In this document: one piece after another, positions 1 through 5,065 of the stretch
Position numbering within the stretch: position 1 is the stretch's first letter
Layout: each line of letters opens with the position of its first letter
Sequence record: NZ_CP040890.1
Direction: 5' to 3' (one strand)
Length of the DNA: 5,065 nucleotides
From: a plasmid
Position numbers and translations under genes: made by a program
The notes under the pieces: model-generated
Database searches by the model: none
Told to the model about the DNA's origin: nothing
The model's input: only the letters and a program-made list of their open reading frames with translations

Positions 1-3
1 ACG

Positions 4-1179
4 CTATTTTTTGAAGGAAAAATGCTCTTTAAAGACAGAGAGTATTGAAGTGGTACTTTCCGGCAACTCGACGATCCCGGTTTCTTTGTTGTAGTAGGAA
101 ACCAGAACTTGGATGTAAGCATGACCTACGGCTTGGGTAAGAGCTACAGCAGTAGCTGCAGAAATGGCACCACCAATAAGGGAACCTACACCAGGAATAA
201 ATTTTAACGCATTAGAAACAACAGCCTTACCTACTTGAGCAACAGCTGTAATACCAAGAATGCCTGCTACAACAGATGTAGTTGTTGATGTAGATGTGTC
301 CAATTCAAACTCAGAGTTTATTTTATATATCATTCCACTTTGTACAGCTGCAATTAACGGCGCATCAGACCCCGGAATAGGAGAAGCTCCGACAGCTCCA
401 GCTGCTGCTGACGCTCCATGAACGATGTTTCTCGCGCCACTTTTCATGGCTTCAAGCCGTTCTCCCATCTTAACCATTTGAGCCTTTTTTAAGGCTTGCT
501 TTGCACCTCTCTTAGCTTCTGGAAGACATTTAAAACTCGAGTCAACTAACTCATCCAAACCACTTACTGGAACAGTAAACTTCCCTATTTTTCTTTCTCT
601 TGAATTAACACAAACATAGTTACCAGAAACATAACTTCCATGATGGCTATCAATTTCATTGATAGCCTCGCGAACAAATTCATCAGTGTCATCTTCAAGA
701 GTTTTAGTGAATACAATTACAATAGGTATGTCATATTCTTTTAATATCCCGATAAGCTCTATATCTCTTGGTTCAACTCTGGCGCCAGAAGCATCAATGC
801 ACATCCAACCAAGGTGAGGAACATCATCCAAGTGTGAGTAGTTATCAAAGCTAGATTTAATTTCTTTTTTTAATTGATTTATTGTTTCTTCATAATCTTT
901 AGATTCAATCCCTTTAGTGTCCCATAATACCATTCCTTTTTTGGGAACTTTAATTTTACTCAGATGCTGAGTAACTGGTTTACCCACTCCAGACTTGACT
1001 ATTTCCTCCCCAAAAACAGCATTAACTAAGGAGCTTTTCCCAACGCCAGTGGCACCGAACAATATAATATTAAATCTTTCTTTTTTTTCTTCTGCTTCCT
1101 GTTTTGCTTTGTCAGCATCGAAAGTTTGTGAGTTGTAGTCATAAGAATCGCCTAAAAAGTCTTCATAAGAACTAGCCAT
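4..1179 (-). CDS. P-loop GTPase (TRAFAC-class, MMR_HSR1/Era-like G domain) fused to a C-terminal DUF697-like glycine-rich hydrophobic (probably membrane-associated) domain; 391 aa.
   Basis: ATG at 1177-1179 (minus strand). An SD aaAGAGGt (reverse complement of 1184-1192) lies 4-5 nt upstream and overlaps the rep stop codon. G1/Walker A is GATGVGKSS. G3 is LWDTKG (DxxG). A G4-like FTKTL is present. The C-terminal region reads ...GASPIPGSDAPLIAAVQSGMIYKINSEF...GILGITAVAQVGKAVVSNALKFIPGVGSLIGGAISAATAVALTQAVG, which is typical of the DUF697 family that Pfam notes is sometimes associated with GTPase domains. The stop is tag (reverse complement of 4-6). The gene is strongly AT-rich compared with the rest of the window. 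Confidence 0.85.
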   Translation of the reverse strand: MASSYEDFLGDSYDYNSQTFDADKAKQEAEEKKERFNIILFGATGVGKSSLVNAVFGEEIVKSGVGKPVTQHLSKIKVPKKGMVLWDTKGIESKDYEETINQLKKEIKSSFDNYSHLDDVPHLGWMCIDASGARVEPRDIELIGILKEYDIPIVIVFTKTLEDDTDEFVREAINEIDSHHGSYVSGNYVCVNSRERKIGKFTVPVSGLDELVDSSFKCLPEAKRGAKQALKKAQMVKMGERLEAMKSGARNIVHGASAAAGAVGASPIPGSDAPLIAAVQSGMIYKINSEFELDTSTSTTTSVVAGILGITAVAQVGKAVVSNALKFIPGVGSLIGGAISAATAVALTQAVGHAYIQVLVSYYNKETGIVELPESTTSILSVFKEHFSFKK

Positions 1180-1181
1180 AG

Positions 1182-2084
1182 TTACCTCTTTAATTGTCGA
1201 TAATACGTGCTTCTACTTATCCCCATGCTTAGCCATGGTTTTTTTGATGTTAAGGACTCAGGATTAAAAGGTCGTCCACCACCTTTACTCTTTTTACCCC
1301 GTAAAGACTGGATATCGGATGTATGTGTTTTTTCTACATACTCTTTAAAAGATGATTCTGTTATTTTTATACTCGTCCACTTAGCAATGCTTTTAGCAAT
1401 ACCGTTCACCTCATTATCATCCAGTGGTGCTGCAAATTGCAGGTTATAGGCACTGGCGCGTTCGTAGCAGGCTTGAAGCCACTGGTCATACTCAGGCCAG
1501 CCCTGACGGATAGCGCGGTATGCCCACTTGCGGGTTCTGTCGAACAGGGTGCAGTTACGGCCTAAACCGTAGTCAGCAACGATTTCTTTGTCGTTCGCCG
1601 CATTCAGGTCGAGAAAGTCAGCCAGCCAGTCCAGCGTGTAAAGTTCAGGTTGCCATACGGCAATTTTCCAGTGGCCGTGGTTCGGATTTTTGCAGATTAG
1701 CCCCGAATACCCCGCGTCAGCCTCTAATTTTTTGCGTAGCGCGTTCTCAACGGCGGCGGCGTAGCGCAATGGCTTTATTTTTCCGTCCGGTGCGGTGCGT
1801 ATCGAGGTTTTCAACGCGTACAGCAGGTGCGCATGTCCGTTGTCGGGGTTGGTGATGGTCAACGTAGGCGCGGGGGCGTTGCGATCGCTCCAGTCGATGG
1901 CGGCACCGGCGCGATCGACGTCGAATCCCAGCCAGAACATGGCGTGAGGCTGATTAAACTGGATGTATTTCGCCAGAATGGCGCGTTCCTTACCGGCAAT
2001 CCGTACACCAAAATGCAGATCGTCCGAAAAGTACGGCTTGTGCGGTAAGCGGTCGTTGAAGAGTGTGAGTGCGGCGTTATGCAA
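1182..2084 (-). CDS. rep: ColE2-family plasmid replication initiator Rep (priming Rep; Replicase/PriCT_1-type), 300 aa. The start is TTG.
   Basis: The N-terminus reads ...FNDRLPHKPYFSDDLHFGVRIAGK...PHAMFWLGFDVD, which matches the conserved LPHKPY...GVRI...FD motif block of ColE2/ColE3 Rep primases. A PriCT-like segment ...NEVNGIAKSIAKWT is present, followed by a basic C-terminal tail (KGGGRPFNPESL...RSTYYRQLKR). The only in-frame start after the upstream stop (taa at 2097-2099) is TTG at 2082-2084, and its SD is weak. The 3' third of the gene (below about 1440) is AT-rich. Confidence 0.85.
   Translation of the reverse strand: MHNAALTLFNDRLPHKPYFSDDLHFGVRIAGKERAILAKYIQFNQPHAMFWLGFDVDRAGAAIDWSDRNAPAPTLTITNPDNGHAHLLYALKTSIRTAPDGKIKPLRYAAAVENALRKKLEADAGYSGLICKNPNHGHWKIAVWQPELYTLDWLADFLDLNAANDKEIVADYGLGRNCTLFDRTRKWAYRAIRQGWPEYDQWLQACYERASAYNLQFAAPLDDNEVNGIAKSIAKWTSIKITESSFKEYVEKTHTSDIQSLRGKKSKGGGRPFNPESLTSKKPWLSMGISRSTYYRQLKR
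1184..1192 (-). promoter_or_regulatory. Ribosome-binding site of the GTPase gene, overlapping the rep stop codon (translational coupling).
   Basis: The reverse complement of 1184-1192 is taaagaggt (AAGAGGT). The rep stop TAA is at 1182-1184. Only 2 nt separate the two CDSs. Confidence 0.6.
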
Positions 2085-2109
2085 TGCGCCCTGCGCTTAT
2101 GGCGGGCTG

Positions 2110-2220
2110 TTGTCTGGCACGTTTCATGTGCTAATATCCTTTCAAGGTTTCGTACCTGGCCCTGGTTATCATGCGGATCCGCCAAGATTTGAGCATGATG
2201 CCGGGGCTTTGTTTTTTCTG
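2110..2220 (+). ncRNA. Candidate antisense copy-number-control RNA (ColE2 RNAI analogue), complementary to the rep mRNA leader. Includes its putative promoter.
   Basis: A plus-strand sigma70-like promoter is present: TTGTCT (2110-2115), a 16-nt spacer, then TAATAT (2132-2137). It points away from rep, into the rep leader. The transcript would cover the perfect 10-bp palindrome GCGGATCCGC (2173-2182), a possible kissing loop. It would run into a T-run, ctttgttttttct (2207-2219), just before the proposed rep -10 element. ColE2 plasmids are known to control Rep translation with an antisense RNA against the leader. No convincing terminator stem is seen, so the 3' end is uncertain. Confidence 0.3.
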
Positions 2221-2224
2221 TTGC

Positions 2225-2260
2225 CGTTAAATTACACGCGAACGGCCTCGCCTGTCGAAT
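2225..2260 (-). promoter_or_regulatory. Putative rep promoter.
   Basis: On the minus strand, TTCGAC (reverse complement of 2254-2259) is followed by a 17-nt spacer and TGTAAT (reverse complement of 2231-2236). This would give a leader of roughly 140 nt to the TTG start. It lies immediately downstream of the antitoxin stop (2278-2280). Confidence 0.35.
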
Positions 2261-2277
2261 CCTTCTGTCACAACGGC

Positions 2278-2562
2278 TTAGTGCGCCGCCAGCTCCTGGA
2301 AGAATTTCGGGTTCGCCTGGATGGTTGCCAGCACCTTCGCCGCCAGTCCGGTCGGATTACGGCGTCCGGTTTCCCAGCTTTTTATGGTGTCGAGGCTGGT
2401 TCCCAGCACTTTCGCCATCTCACTCTGTGAAACGTTCAGTTGTGCCCTGATAGCCTTCACGTCTGCCAGCTCGTAACGGGTGACGCGGGCAGGCTCTCTG
2501 ACGCCGTTTTTGATTTCAACGGCTTCTTCCAGCGATGCTTTCAGCTCGTCAAAAAAACTCAT
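2278..2562 (-). CDS. Type II antitoxin, HTH XRE-family DNA-binding protein (HigA-like; downstream partner of a RelE/ParE-family toxin), 94 aa.
   Basis: The HTH region reads QLNVSQSEMAKVLGTSLDTIKSWETGRRNP. ATG at 2560-2562 is 1 nt from the toxin stop (tga, reverse complement of 2564-2566). The toxin-first arrangement is typical of HigBA-like modules. Confidence 0.8.
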   Translation of the reverse strand: MSFFDELKASLEEAVEIKNGVREPARVTRYELADVKAIRAQLNVSQSEMAKVLGTSLDTIKSWETGRRNPTGLAAKVLATIQANPKFFQELAAH

Positions 2563-2563
2563 G

Positions 2564-2896
2564 TCACACCTCGTCTTTCAGTTGTTGGGTCAGCGTCTTC
2601 AGCGCGGCTTTCTCCGCGTCCGTCAGGCTGTCTTTGGTGCTTTTCGGGTAGGCCATCACCAGATAAATCACCTCGGCGGTGGCCAGAAAATAAATCACCC
2701 TCGCGCTGCCGCTTTTTCCCTGGTTGCCCGTCGCCATTCTGACTTTTCGCAGCCCGCCGGTTTTCTGGATGAGATCGCCTTTGTCCGGCGACTCAATCAG
2801 CGTCTTTTGCAGCTCCCTGAGCTCTTCATCCGTGGCGATCTGTTTTATCTGACGGGTAAACATCGGGGTCTCGATAAATTCAATCGTGTGACTCAC
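2564..2896 (-). CDS. Type II toxin of the RelE/ParE superfamily (HigB-like; toxin encoded upstream of the antitoxin), 110 aa. GTG start.
   Basis: GTG at 2894-2896 has a good SD AGGAGA (reverse complement of 2902-2907) 5 nt upstream. The motifs ...GLRKVRMATGNQGKSGSARVIYFLATAEVIYLVMAYPKSTKDSLTDAEK... are characteristic of the RelE/ParE-like toxins that pair with HTH antitoxins (core: basic-Gly-Lys-Ser-Gly...RVIYF...IYLL..Y.K). The gene is tightly coupled to the downstream HTH gene. Confidence 0.8.
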   Translation of the reverse strand: MSHTIEFIETPMFTRQIKQIATDEELRELQKTLIESPDKGDLIQKTGGLRKVRMATGNQGKSGSARVIYFLATAEVIYLVMAYPKSTKDSLTDAEKAALKTLTQQLKDEV

Positions 2897-2899
2897 GGT

Positions 2900-2956
2900 T
2901 GTCTCCTGTATTTAACGGAGTACATAGTACACTTAATTCTGATTCCGGAAAAGAGG
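2900..2956 (-). promoter_or_regulatory. Putative toxin-antitoxin promoter/operator region.
   Basis: A 60-bp gap separates the mbeA stop (2957-2959) from the toxin start. It holds the near-palindrome GTACATAGTAC (2920-2930) overlapping -10-like hexamers (TACTAT / TTAAAT on the minus strand). A second CATAGTAC copy is at 2971-2978. Such palindromes are typical auto-repression sites of antitoxin or TA complexes. The exact -35/-10 assignment is ambiguous. Confidence 0.3.
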
Positions 2957-4519
2957 TCACATCGAGGGGCCATAGTACCGGGTCGGCTTTTTCTGCGGCT
3001 CCGGCTGTTGCTCGCGCAGCTTTTCCGCACGGGCGCGGTCATGCTGCGCAATCAGCGCATCAAGCGGCTGACGTTCCTGCTCAAGCTCTCGACCTGCGCG
3101 CGCAAGCTGTCCACCTGACTGCTCAAGTGCTGACACACCCGGTCGCTGTGCGTCAGCGCCTGTGAGGTAGCCTCGAACATGTGCTGCAAACTGCTGTAGC
3201 TGTCCTGCCACGCCTGCTGCTGTTGCTCGTAGCCTGCCTGTAAGCTCTCTAAGGCGCTCAGAAGCTGTTTTTCCATCTCGGTCATGGTTTTGGTCATCCT
3301 CGGTGTTAAAAACATGCTGTGGCGTTTCATGGCGCTCTGATGAGGTTATTTCGCCGTGTATTTCACCACGGTATTCCCGGCCTGCGAGGTGTAGGTTTCC
3401 ACGCCGTGCGCCTGCTTCGGCAGCACCGCCAGGTAGGTGTTCCGGTTCTTTTCGTCGCTGTAAATCGTCACGCCCGCGCCGCTTTTCGCTTTCAGGCTCG
3501 CCAGCTGCTGGCTGTAGCTGTCCATCTCGCTCAGGCGTGAGGTGATGATCGTGCCCTGAAACCAGATTATCCCGCCCATGATGCCGATCAGCAGGGCGAA
3601 GCAGATGAATATCCACGCCATTGCTGTTGAGACTGACTTCCTGAGCATGCCCGTCAGCCTGCCGTTCTGCTCGCGGATAGCGTTGCTGATGCTCTGCGCG
3701 CTTGATTGCAGTTCCGCGCTGATAGACGTCTCCAGCCTCGCGAACTCGCGCTTCACGCTCTGCTCGGTATCCTGCGCCTGCTGCTTCGATTTCTCCTCGA
3801 AGCCCTTCGCCAAATTTAAAATCTCGCTCATAGATCATTCCTTTCAGCCGGATATTTCGGCCGCCGTCCGGATCGGCAATGCTGATACTGCTTTTAGTTT
3901 CCCGCGCCACGGTCAGGCCGTAGCTTTCCAGCTGCGTCACCACGTCCTGCCGGCTGCGGATCACGCCCTGCTGCATCAGGTTCATCAGGCCGGCGGTGAT
4001 TTTCTCTGCCGCCTGCTGTTTGTCGCGGGGCAGATCACTGGCCTGCGTCAGCGGGCGGCGGTAAGTCGGGTCGTTCGGGTCGCGCAGCCCCAGTCGGTCG
4101 TTGGTCAGGGTCTGCCAGGCATTGACACGGGGGCGGTCAGCGCGGTCAAAGTAGGGTTGCAGGCGTTTGCCGCTCTGCAATTCGATGTTCGGGATGACAA
4201 AATTCAGCTCAAGCCGTCCCTTGTCGCGGTGCTCCACCCACAGGCAGGTGTACTGGTCGCGGTCGAGGCCGGTCAGCAGCGTGTGCTCCCATTCATCCAT
4301 CAGGCGCGATTTCTCCGCGTCTGCAATGTCAGGTTCCTGGAATGACAGCACGCCGGAGGTGTAGGCGCGGGCAAAGTCGCAGCCGTCGATCAGTTCGCGC
4401 ACATGTTCAGGGTTGCCGCGCAGTACGCTGGCCTGTTCGCGCTGCCGGTCTTTACCCAGCAGGTAATCCACCGGACCACTGCCGGAACCCGCACCGCGTG
4501 AGTGAATTTTAACGATCAC
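2957..4519 (-). CDS. mbeA: MbeA/MobA relaxase of the ColE1 (MOB_HEN) family, 520 aa. The true start is probably GTG at 4517-4519, not the TTG at 4553-4555 used by the ORF track.
   Basis: From the GTG the N-terminus reads (M)IVKIHSRGAGSGSGPVDYLLGKDRQREQASVLRGNPEHVRELID...YTSGVLSFQE, which aligns residue-for-residue in pattern with ColE1 MbeA (MIVKFHARGKGGGSGPVDYLL...). An SD GGAG lies about 8 nt upstream of the GTG. The start overlaps the mbeC stop (4509-4511) by 11 nt, as in ColE1. The C-terminal half is Arg/Glu/Gln-rich and low-complexity, and hosts the nested mbeB and mbeD frames. Confidence 0.88.
   Translation of the reverse strand: MIVKIHSRGAGSGSGPVDYLLGKDRQREQASVLRGNPEHVRELIDGCDFARAYTSGVLSFQEPDIADAEKSRLMDEWEHTLLTGLDRDQYTCLWVEHRDKGRLELNFVIPNIELQSGKRLQPYFDRADRPRVNAWQTLTNDRLGLRDPNDPTYRRPLTQASDLPRDKQQAAEKITAGLMNLMQQGVIRSRQDVVTQLESYGLTVARETKSSISIADPDGGRNIRLKGMIYERDFKFGEGLRGEIEAAGAGYRAEREARVREAGDVYQRGTAIKRAEHQQRYPRAERQADGHAQEVSLNSNGVDIHLLRPADRHHGRDNLVSGHDHHLTPERDGQLQPAAGEPESEKRRGRDDLQRRKEPEHLPGGAAEAGARRGNLHLAGREYRGEIHGEITSSERHETPQHVFNTEDDQNHDRDGKTASERLRELTGRLRATAAGVAGQLQQFAAHVRGYLTGADAQRPGVSALEQSGGQLARAGRELEQERQPLDALIAQHDRARAEKLREQQPEPQKKPTRYYGPSM
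3052..3330 (-). CDS. mbeD: MbeD-like mobilization protein nested inside the 3' part of mbeA. 92 aa from the first ATG; the true start may be a downstream ATG (3283-3285, giving 77 aa).
   Basis: The protein reads ...MTKTMTEMEKQLLSALESLQAGYEQQQQAWQ...SLRAQVESLSRNVSRLMR, a coiled-coil-like Gln-rich small protein of the expected size. It sits in the ColE1 mbeD position, after mbeB and overlapping the mbeA 3' end. Several in-frame ATGs (3328, 3313, 3295, 3283) are present; none has an ideal SD. Confidence 0.6.
   Translation of the reverse strand: MKRHSMFLTPRMTKTMTEMEKQLLSALESLQAGYEQQQQAWQDSYSSLQHMFEATSQALTHSDRVCQHLSSQVDSLRAQVESLSRNVSRLMR
3346..3831 (-). CDS. mbeB: MbeB-like mobilization protein nested inside mbeA in another frame, 161 aa. 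One predicted TM helix.
   Basis: ATG at 3829-3831 has a strong SD AAGGAA (reverse complement of 3838-3843) 6 nt upstream. The protein starts MSEILNLAKGFEEKSKQQAQ... and contains a hydrophobic segment AMAWIFICFALLIGIMGGIIWF. The nested mbeB-within-mbeA arrangement is the known ColE1 organisation. Confidence 0.7.
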   Translation of the reverse strand: MSEILNLAKGFEEKSKQQAQDTEQSVKREFARLETSISAELQSSAQSISNAIREQNGRLTGMLRKSVSTAMAWIFICFALLIGIMGGIIWFQGTIITSRLSEMDSYSQQLASLKAKSGAGVTIYSDEKNRNTYLAVLPKQAHGVETYTSQAGNTVVKYTAK

Positions 4520-4835
4520 GGTTCTGCTCCAGCAGGTCGCCAAGCTGCCGGTCAAGGCTGGTCAGTACGACAAGCAGCGAGGCACGTTCAGACGGCGTCA
4601 GGGAATCAGTCTGGTTCAGGCGGCGGGCTATCTGGTTCAGGTTGTTGCCAATCCCGCTGACCTGTCGCAGCAGTTCGGGCGCAACCTCTGGCACACGGCG
4701 CCTGCGTGAGGTGTGTTCTCCCAAACCAAGCTGACGCAGCCACTCCGCAAGATGAGCCCGGTCGCAGCGATCAAGCAGTCGCTGATGCTCAGTTTCAGTA
4801 AGACGGATTTTGATCTCTTTCGTTCGCTTTTCCAT
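4509..4835 (-). CDS. mbeC: MbeC/MobC-family relaxosome accessory protein (oriT-binding), 108 aa.
   Basis: ATG at 4833-4835 is preceded by GCGGAG. The protein is a small basic protein (MEKRTKEIKIRLTETEHQRLL...NLNQIARRLNQ) with the ...L..E...L...GNNLNQIAR... motif typical of MobC/MbeC. It sits immediately upstream of, and overlaps, the relaxase gene, and is adjacent to oriT. Confidence 0.85.
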   Translation of the reverse strand: MEKRTKEIKIRLTETEHQRLLDRCDRAHLAEWLRQLGLGEHTSRRRRVPEVAPELLRQVSGIGNNLNQIARRLNQTDSLTPSERASLLVVLTSLDRQLGDLLEQNRDR

Positions 4836-4889
4836 AGGCTCCGCTGAGAAAAAATTCGCACCACCGTGAGAATTTTTCGCAGTGGATGC

Positions 4890-4975
4890 CAGGGGTTTCG
4901 GGGGGCGGCGAGCCCCCTGAACCAGTCACGGTGGCACCTCGCTAGAGGGGACGCTGTGTGTACTGGCTTAAAGAG
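4890..4975. other. Origin of transfer (oriT/bom), ColE1/pBR322 type. Probable nic site between 4966 and 4967 (tactgg/ctta).
   Basis: ggggtttcgggg...ccagtcacg...gtgtgtactggcttaa matches the pBR322 bom sequence GGGTGTCGGGG...CCAGTCACG...GTGTATACTGGCTTAA, including the nick-region core. An upstream GC inverted repeat GGGGGC-ggcga-GCCCCC is at 4901-4917. The region lies directly upstream of mbeC as in ColE1. Confidence 0.8.
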
Positions 4976-5007
4976 TAATGCAGTATGTCAGATTCTGTGC
5001 TGACTGC

Positions 5008-5035
5008 AAAAAAAAAAGCCCCGCTTATACGGGGC
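5008..5035 (-). terminator. Rho-independent terminator-like hairpin read on the minus strand (GCCCCG-tataag-CGGGGC followed by a 9-10 nt U-run). In ColE2 the equivalent structure immediately follows the ori.
   Basis: The plus strand has a10 (5008-5017), then gccccg (5018-5023), cttata, cggggc (5030-5035). On the minus strand this is a perfect 6-bp GC stem with a 6-nt loop followed by T9-10. Confidence 0.6.
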
Positions 5036-5065
5036 TGTTATCTGATATAGGTTGTTATTGTCTCA
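5018..5065 (-). other. ColE2-type origin of vegetative replication (Rep-binding and priming site).
   Basis: The minus strand reads tgagacaataacaacctatatcagataacagccccg.... The 14-mer TATCAGATAACAGC and the TGAGAC boundary match my recollection of the ColE2-P9 minimal ori (TGAGACCAGATAAGCCTTATCAGATAACAGCGCC). CAATAAC/CAGATAAC repeats are present. It is followed by a hairpin and T-run. It is separated from rep only by the GTPase gene if the molecule is circular. Confidence 0.7.

Follow-up and report, generated by a model that had tools for sequence, protein, structure and literature searches.

Why should a small plasmid carry a gene for a putative GTPase between its replication gene and its origin, and what might the encoded protein do there? 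The question is raised by sequence record NZ_CP040890.1, a stretch of 5065 bp that was analysed in full and is referred to here as the window. All its genes lie on the minus strand, and it looks like an entire small mobilizable plasmid of ColE2 type; its coordinates were treated as a closed circle, an assumption, for placement of the origin (ori) and terminator. The gene in question (4..1179, minus strand, ATG start) encodes a protein of 391 residues, a G domain followed by a DUF697 domain, and constitutes the plasmid's variable cargo. An earlier annotation made from the letters alone (the sequence-only reading) had listed as possible roles a link between replication and the membrane or cell cycle, a defence effector, and an exclusion function. 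Genomic context favoured defence or exclusion among these. The gene is put forward here as a mobile single-gene cargo that may encode a membrane-acting defence or exclusion factor under nucleotide control, a candidate reading whose chances are placed a little under even.

The N-terminal part of the protein was matched by Pfam to MMR_HSR1 (PF01926; residues 38-159, 47.6 bits against a cutoff of 21.9), bearing out the TRAFAC-type G domain that had been called from the motifs GATGVGKSS and DTKG. The domain occupies residues ~35-205 (565..1077, minus strand), with G1 GATGVGKS at residues 42-49 (1033-1056, minus strand) and G3 DTKG at residues 87-90 (910-921, minus strand). Both motifs and T70 were invariant in 41 homologues. 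The P-loop lysine, numbered K47 in the sequence-only reading, is K48. TKTL, also listed there as a G-domain motif, does occupy the G4 position (697-708, minus strand, within FTKTL at residues 157-161) but without the Asp that specifies guanine. Invariance at G4 is limited to F157 and T158; the variants FTRVTG and FTKDMG were seen, and the fourth position has no conserved Asp. Profile matches to solved G domains in the PDB were led by GIMAP7 (E 1.4e-7), followed by EngB, GIMAP4, septins, Der, Toc34 and IRGB10. An AlphaFold2 (AF2) model of the full-length protein, built with 41 homologues, had a predicted local distance difference test score (pLDDT) of 79.9 and a predicted template modelling score of 0.82. 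The nearest folds by Foldseek were IRGa6, IRGb6, GM4951, septins and GIMAP2/7, at global template modelling scores of only 0.36-0.40, and giant-virus G domains were the sole matches in a viral structure library. These comparisons show the N-terminal TRAFAC G domain to belong to the GIMAP/septin/Toc/IRG/EngB neighbourhood.

The C-terminal part matched DUF697 (PF05128; residues 243-359) narrowly, at 29.6 bits against a cutoff of 27.7, and the DUF697-like domain that had been proposed is thus marginally confirmed; homologues scored 34.8, 31.8 and 23.6 bits. Structure and profile searches returned no specific solved homologue of this domain. It was modelled separately with AF2 (residues 211-391, 63 sequences, pLDDT 81.7), giving predicted helices at residues 238-264, 272-290, 298-326 and 332-361, after which come a small beta-hairpin and one last helix. 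The helical domain (residues 238-361; 97..468, minus strand) includes a hairpin of two helices rich in small and hydrophobic residues (residues 298-361; 97-288, minus strand). These two helices, 29-30 residues long, have mean hydropathies of 1.0 and 1.25, contain 2 and 0 charged residues, and show repeated small-xxx-small spacing. DUF697 is the best-conserved region of the protein, with a mean column conservation of 0.79 versus 0.66 in the G domain; its SPIPGSDAP loop and the KFIPG turn joining the two long helices are invariant. With this composition, insertion of the hairpin into a membrane is plausible.

Homologues were collected by a word-indexed search, which returned more than 800. The top ~120 were full-length (about 391 residues, 52-92% identity) and came from Pectobacterium, Morganella, Xenorhabdus, Serratia, Salmonella, Vibrio, Halomonas, Aeromonas and Pseudomonas; 40 that were aligned shared 52-92% identity over 97-100% of their length. 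An exhaustive search of 50%-identity cluster representatives gave 3850 matches at E<=1e-3 and 300 at E<=1e-30, most of them spanning query residues ~30-365, that is, both domains. Acinetobacter, Psychrobacter, Neisseria, Actinobacillus, Conchiformibius, a spirochaete and Helicobacter pylori were added by a species-level genome scan. From these alignments the window protein is a member of a full-length G-domain+DUF697 family of ~390 residues, whose members are 45-92% identical to it from end to end and keep the invariant motifs GxxGxGKS, T70, DTKG, SPIPGSDAP and KFIPG. The fusion had been taken for an unusual one; with 300 clusters at the stricter threshold it instead represents a large existing family, which is already in databases, unnamed and unstudied. 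Source labels include 'GTPase', 'YcjF family protein', 'GTP-binding DUF697 domain-containing protein' and '50S ribosome-binding GTPase'. The exact sequence is new, the best match being 92% identical. In E. coli the gene is a rarity, present in 1 of the 5426 complete genomes searched, and no homologue was found among 50,697 phage genomes. A search of the literature on DUF697, YcjF and GTPase defence returned no function for the family, in line with the sequence-only reading, which had called the arrangement an undescribed plasmid function.

The slot that the gene occupies was then compared between plasmids. Window positions ~1265-5065 are about 93% identical to hundreds of plasmids from Klebsiella, E. 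coli, Salmonella and Enterobacter, but positions 1-1265 are matched across their length in none of these. Ten sister plasmids were inspected (slot loci: window 1..1376 and 5008..5065; L002, L003, L018-L021, L035 and L036), and known anti-phage genes were found in the slot in six of them. Slot proteins were matched by PADLOC to dCTPase (a dCTP deaminase, 528 bits), HEC-06 (a DUF262 protein, 255 bits), PARIS AriA and AriB (an AAA ATPase and its partner, 86 and 38 bits), AbiU (an AIPR protein, 74 bits) and OLD (an AAA ATPase, 68 bits). Four sister plasmids have cargo on the same strand as rep that overlaps the rep stop codon by 11-20 nt, namely AIPR, DUF262, an OLD-like AAA ATPase, and a DEAD/DEAH helicase with an open reading frame (ORF) of 77 residues. 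The PARIS pair, an AAA ATPase with a 292-residue partner, fills the slot of a fifth on the same strand, rep not being listed in that record's gene table. Cargo convergent to rep was seen in three (the dCTP deaminase, a J-domain protein and a hypothetical protein). The order rep, 2-nt gap, GTPase gene recurred in a second plasmid (L017, 5098 bp, protein 85% identical), and the ten sister plasmids held other cargo. Given that six of the ten carry anti-phage slot genes, the remaining cargo (the GTPase, the helicase, the J-domain protein and the hypotheticals) makes up a short screening list.

Alignment of Rep proteins indicated how the cargo is exchanged. Residues 1-236 are nearly invariant, and the last ~65 residues (~237-300) diverge yet are homologous. 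Homology breakpoints in the sister plasmids fall at 1265-1375. The divergent, low-GC (guanine-plus-cytosine) C-terminal tail of Rep (1185..1376, minus strand) co-varies with the cargo and is inherited with it, so the cargo is nested between tail and ori and the three were apparently exchanged as one cassette. Base composition agrees in part with what had been claimed. The low-GC block is real, at 39.0% GC in the cargo gene against 57.3% in the backbone, but the figure is not the one third that had been estimated by hand; nor is the block confined to the gene, since it runs on into the last ~270 nt of rep (37.5% GC). In the literature searched, no description was found of the rep-ori slot as a defence-cargo hotspot, or of a 'Rep tail - cargo - ori' cassette with chromosomal remnants.

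Such remnants were detected by DNA homology. Window positions 4..1629 and 4962..5064 matched a Pectobacterium chromosomal islet adjoining an integrase gene (L005), and 4..~1500-1600 together with the ori region matched three contigs (L013, L014 and L015). The copies at L005 9556-11282, L014 1128-2760, L013 355-1958 and L015 2584-4216 are preceded by what is left of the 3' part of rep, with frameshifts, and followed by an ori and hairpin that have degraded. In L005 and L014 the upstream rep-like sequence consists of frameshifted fragments and the GTPase ORF is intact. This arrangement suggests that the Pectobacterium integrase islet captured the plasmid cassette. In Morganella (L007) the gene itself is all that is shared with the window; no rep is present, and the gene, at one end of a lambdoid prophage, comes right after the tail-fibre genes. 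The Pectobacterium and Morganella relatives share 81-92% amino acid identity with the window protein. The ratio of nonsynonymous to synonymous substitution rates (dN/dS), calculated for the window gene against six relatives that reside in plasmid, islet and prophage settings, was 0.05-0.09. The gene is therefore intact and under purifying selection beside a decayed or absent rep, and its selected function needs neither rep nor a plasmid. By this ratio and by the number of its homologues, the GTPase-DUF697 gene is real and functional. A 70%-identical gene was located on the E. coli plasmid pL9-4 (L001, NZ_CP142048; 2083-3748), a ColE1-type, Rop-encoding plasmid of 4989 bp, so the cargo has also entered a different replicon type; a 56-residue 'replication initiation protein' fragment lies there on the opposite strand.

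More distant homologues were found in varied settings, and the neighbourhoods were all different in 13 of 13 non-Helicobacter species loci. The Salmonella homologue lies with an integrase and a DUF3987 (P4-like) gene in a satellite-like island. That of Vibrio parahaemolyticus adjoins an integrase gene, and its island also encodes AlpA, Dam, WYL and RadC; that of Pseudomonas follows a WYL regulator, and that of contig L015 adjoins PDC-S31 (174 bits). In Mixta a TIR-NLR gene is 936 nt away. The Halomonas homologue directly follows a PD-T4-10B-like ORF (128 bits), with ParDE and Phd/YoeB modules and insertion sequence elements around it. The PD-T4-10B match is at 8224-8889 in L032, and at 1773-2438 and 563-1228 in the similar contigs L033 and L034; no recognisable PD-T4-10A was noticed next to it in these contigs. 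PD-T4-10B is the toxin of a validated abortive-infection toxin-antitoxin system (PMC9519451). Non-mobilizable Klebsiella plasmids of ~110 kb, which encode nrdAB and thyA, carry a copy near a type I HsdR gene. In one of them, p1605752FIB_2 (L022), a 36%-identical GTPase-DUF697 gene at 8944-10050 lies in an accessory region near that HsdR gene, and nrdAB, thymidylate synthase and dihydrofolate reductase genes give the plasmid a phage-plasmid-like content; the gene occurs in ~35 Klebsiella records, mostly ~110-kb IncFIB-type.

A total of 145 flanking ORFs were scanned. PADLOC matches, obtained with no background control and taken as supportive only, were to TIR-NLR, MzaA, a PtuA/AriA-like ATPase, mad2/mad3, WYL and PDC-S68, and Pfam identified three integrases. 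An ORF of ~220 residues neighbours the GTPase gene in Salmonella and Pseudomonas in differing orientations (L011 3525-4184, plus strand; L025 10200-10895 and L027 10200-10874, minus strand). Its products are 66-68% identical and contain LYTLRNQLIHGGATW (RNQLIH, an Rx4H HEPN-like motif); they had no Pfam or PADLOC match, and the ORF is absent from the window. A fixed operon partner was considered and rejected, the adjacent ORFs of ~184-231 residues in Salmonella/Pseudomonas, Vibrio and Halomonas being three unrelated families with no member in the window. H. pylori differs in that its homologue (L050-L072, ~7950-9170; ~45% identity) sits at one fixed syntenic locus, with a pseudouridine synthase gene on one side and, 23 nt downstream, an FtsW/RodA gene on the other. 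The gene was intact in 1 of 21 representative H. pylori genomes and disrupted in the other 20, at varying positions, so it is dispensable and decaying there.

An anti-phage role, or a broader anti-invader one, at the inner membrane is the most likely function predicted from these comparisons. It is favoured by the defence genes that share the slot, the integrase, prophage and satellite contexts, the low dN/dS, the conservation of DUF697 and the lack of homologues in the phage genomes searched. GTPases of the GIMAP, septin, Toc34 and IRG type include several with immune, membrane-acting roles. In the mechanism proposed, the cargo would be transcribed on the rep mRNA, the transcript ending at a hairpin after ori, and its own Shine-Dalgarno sequence would allow translation even when antisense RNA blocks that of rep. 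Expression would then probably be low, constitutive and linked to copy number. Nucleotide binding and hydrolysis would control self-association of the G domain, as in GIMAP, septin, IRG and dynamin-type GTPases, and this association would in turn control insertion or rearrangement of the DUF697 hairpin. On a phage cue the membrane might be permeabilised, resulting in abortive infection; alternatively, genome entry or lysis might be blocked, or the outcome might be exclusion or protection, as in DynA. Phage resistance that involves the GTPase DynA depends on its binding to the membrane (PMC12998192), and infection by phiX174 induces YcjX and YcjF (PMC8125068).

Confidence in any specific variant is lower than in the general proposal of a membrane-acting defence or exclusion factor. 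One such variant holds that G-domain+DUF697 proteins are widespread, previously unrecognised single-protein immune effectors, prokaryotic relatives of GIMAP, septin and IRG proteins, whose nucleotide-controlled assembly drives the hairpin into the membrane on infection, and that the rep-ori slot is a portable defence hotspot. It is offered tentatively and, taken whole, is doubtful. Several observations count against a defence or exclusion role. No significant match to a PADLOC 2023 (2.0.0) defence model was obtained beyond the level of the P-loop. GTP specificity is not established, as the guanine-specifying Asp is absent at G4. The hydropathy of the hairpin is borderline, and AF2 packs it into the helical bundle. 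The slot also takes a J-domain protein and a hypothetical protein, and many neighbours of chromosomal homologues among the 145 flanking ORFs are housekeeping genes. The H. pylori homologue is fixed beside the FtsW/RodA gene, not on an obvious mobile element, and co-transcription of the cargo with rep is presumed.

The H. pylori locus also bears on a different explanation, that the protein is an envelope-stress or membrane-maintenance factor. The protein would then be a fused analogue of the YcjX+YcjF pair, or work in the manner of the dynamin-like DynA, keeping the inner membrane stable or mending it under stress; its carriage by mobile elements would reflect a general benefit to fitness, and any resistance to phage would be incidental. 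The position of the H. pylori copy upstream of FtsW/RodA fits this, as does the DUF697 domain shared with YcjF, the type member, which is annotated as an inner-membrane protein. The ycjXF genes are tied to psp operons and the heat-shock regulon (PMC3041696) and are induced by phiX174 (PMC8125068), and DynA protects membranes (PMC12998192). Against this, similarity to YcjF is found at profile level only (BLASTP pairwise E 0.39, not significant) and there is none to YcjX; the protein lacks the N-terminal transmembrane region of YcjF; the distribution is patchy, mobile-element-borne and different from species to species, unlike that of a conserved stress regulon; and the H. pylori copy is broken in nearly all genomes examined. 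A maintenance role was accordingly rated unlikely.

A second alternative is that the gene is an inter-element weapon or addiction factor. Instead of defending against phage, its product would keep out plasmids or other elements on their way in, or would be a membrane toxin by which the carrier is stabilised. The carriers are plasmids, phage-plasmid-like replicons, prophages and satellite-like islands, toxin-antitoxin modules are often adjacent, a hydrophobic hairpin of small residues is compatible with a membrane toxin, and the repeated loss of the gene in H. pylori fits a costly one. Against this, the window slot, which the cargo fills with gaps of 2-3 nt, contains no cognate antitoxin or immunity ORF. 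The plasmid moreover already has a RelE/HigB-type toxin-antitoxin pair, and those sister cargoes that can be identified are anti-phage. This explanation was judged distinctly unlikely.

The junction with rep raises the question whether the gene serves replication. Read directly, it is ...AAG AGG TAA CT ATG: the rep stop codon (1182-1184) is separated from the cargo ATG by 2 nt, and rep's final two sense codons supply a strong Shine-Dalgarno sequence for the cargo, AAGAGG (1185..1190, minus strand), 5 nt ahead of its start codon. The ColE2-type ori begins ~3 nt past the cargo stop codon, across the circle junction, so the position between rep and ori and the tight junction are as the sequence-only reading described them. 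The ori-like element, TGAGACAATAACAACCTATATCAGATAACAGC (5034..5065, minus strand), presumably resembles the ori of ColE2-P9. It is conserved after every cargo in the sister plasmids, and remnants of it are kept in chromosomal copies of the cargo. It is followed by the hairpin GCCCCG-TATAAG-CGGGGC and a T-run (5008..5035, minus strand), a likely terminator of the rep-cargo transcript; element, hairpin and T-run together span 5065..5008 (minus strand) and are conserved in all sister plasmids. The stem at 5018..5035 is GCCCCG/CGGGGC in the window versus GCCCTCT/AGAGGGC in the sister plasmids, with pairing preserved by compensatory changes in both arms. A promoter scan returned none for the cargo on the minus strand; as rep's own promoter was missed too, that negative result is weak.

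A replication or segregation accessory would act as a membrane-tethered GTP switch through which ColE2-type replication, or copy number, is tied to the membrane or the cell cycle. The placement between rep and ori, probably on the rep transcript, and its recurrence in L017 speak for such a role. However, unrelated cargo in the slot of sister plasmids overlaps the rep stop, which makes coupling to rep a property of the slot that is uninformative about the GTPase; the idea that the gene is wired into the replication operon therefore loses its value as a functional clue. Plasmids ~93% identical to the window replicate with unrelated genes in the slot, and classical ColE2 replicons need only rep and a 32-bp ori located downstream of it (PMC6856555). 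The main counter-argument is that the intact gene persists under purifying selection beside rep pseudogenes (L005 and L014) and in the rep-less prophage (L007). The replication link is disfavoured on these grounds and held to be highly improbable. Least credible of all is a ribosome-associated GTPase acting on translation (assembly or hibernation), which is suggested by the label '50S ribosome-binding GTPase', the best Pfam match to MMR_HSR1 and weak NCBIfam matches to Der, YlqF, YsxC and Era, since the scores against the ribosome-biogenesis models (Der, Era, EngB, YlqF and RsgA) are 16-39 bits for equivalog cutoffs of 100-631 and reflect a generic G domain only, no KH or other RNA-binding domain is present, the C-terminal half is the hydrophobic DUF697 domain, and the label is a historical name of the Pfam G-domain model.

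The remainder of the plasmid is backbone. The rep gene (1182..2084, minus strand) encodes a ColE2-type Rep of 300 residues that was matched by Pfam to Replicase (PF03090, 155.7 bits) and PriCT_1 (PF08708, 34.6 bits). By these domains and the short ori downstream of rep, the carrier is classed as a ColE2-type (class C theta) replicon. In ColE2 plasmids the antisense-RNA control region is located in the rep leader. The corresponding region of the window (2095..2209, minus strand) gave the sole match in an Rfam scan, to PK-repBA at 35.5 bits, below the gathering score of 45. In ColE2 the antisense RNA blocks rep translation (PMC6856555, PMC5304414). Mobilization genes comprise mobC (4509..4835, NikA-like/MobC) and a relaxase gene (2957..4555) within which mbeB (3346..3831) and mbeD (3052..3330) are nested, all on the minus strand. 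The conserved backbone at 2278..2896 (minus strand) holds a RelE/HigB-type toxin gene (2564..2896) and a helix-turn-helix, NadS/HigA-like antitoxin gene (2278..2562), so the plasmid owns an addiction or defence-type module beyond the slot cargo. The description of the GTPase gene as sole cargo is right in that no other cargo is variable, but it leaves out this pair. The window plasmid has no entry in PLSDB.

If a role in phage defence is correct, DUF697, which thousands of bacterial proteins contain (E. coli YcjF among them), would gain its first function, and a GIMAP/septin/IRG-like GTPase would join the immune modules common to bacteria and eukaryotes. The slot, with cargo locked between the Rep specificity tail and its cognate ori, could then be mined for further systems. 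Mobilizable plasmids of this kind, 5-6 kb long, occur commonly in clinical isolates of Klebsiella, E. coli and Salmonella, and may therefore spread phage resistance between strains relevant to phage therapy.

Of known systems, YcjX-YcjF of E. coli (a DUF463 Ras-like GTPase and a DUF697 inner-membrane protein) likewise links a GTP-binding module to DUF697. The two modules are separate proteins in that system and fused in the window protein, where DUF697 lies at residues 243-359 rather than 183-341 as in YcjF, and where a G domain takes the place of the N-terminal transmembrane helices. The G domains are unrelated at a detectable level (hhalign probability 0.9%): that of the window protein is not YcjX-like, and the link to YcjF is confined to the profile level. 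YcjXF is moreover a conserved chromosomal operon, whereas the window gene is mobile. Assignment to YcjF/UPF0283 proper was rejected, given that the window contains no DUF463 gene and the protein shows neither significant pairwise similarity nor N-terminal transmembrane helices. GIMAP/AIG1, septin, Toc34 and IRG (p47) proteins have the closest solved G domains by profile and fold, and these are likewise followed by helical or membrane-targeting regions. They have no counterpart of the C-terminal DUF697, and the window protein differs in lacking the G4 Asp. Membership of GIMAP/AIG1 (PF04548) was rejected at 26.7 bits against a cutoff of 27, the relation being at superfamily level only.

Other defence-associated GTPases were compared in the same way. 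Membership of Eleos (LeoBC/LeoA) was rejected: matches of 33.3 and 20.6 bits cover residues ~19-103 only, ~85 P-loop residues of models of ~560-600 positions, and the window has a single gene. Compared with LeoA/LeoBC and DynA, the window protein is half the size and lacks the dynamin-type middle/GTPase effector domain architecture. PD-T4-10 was also rejected, as the GTPase matches neither component and only the Halomonas neighbour matches PD-T4-10B. For YfjP, the E. coli K-12 cryptic-prophage GTPase, a 21-residue P-loop match was all that was found, and a relationship was not accepted; the unrelated yfjP lies directly after rnlAB and near abpAB, known anti-phage genes, in CP4-57 (L037 1538-6574).

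The slot itself is closest to P2/P4 hotspots and prophage moron sites, in which a fixed backbone likewise has one variable slot filled mostly by single-gene defence systems. Unlike those of the P2/P4 type, it lies inside a minimal replicon, between the C-terminal tail of Rep and ori; its cargo usually overlaps the rep stop, and the Rep tail co-varies with the cargo. The functional proposal would amount to a new protein family within a known kind, that of single-gene, nucleoside triphosphatase-controlled, membrane-acting defence.

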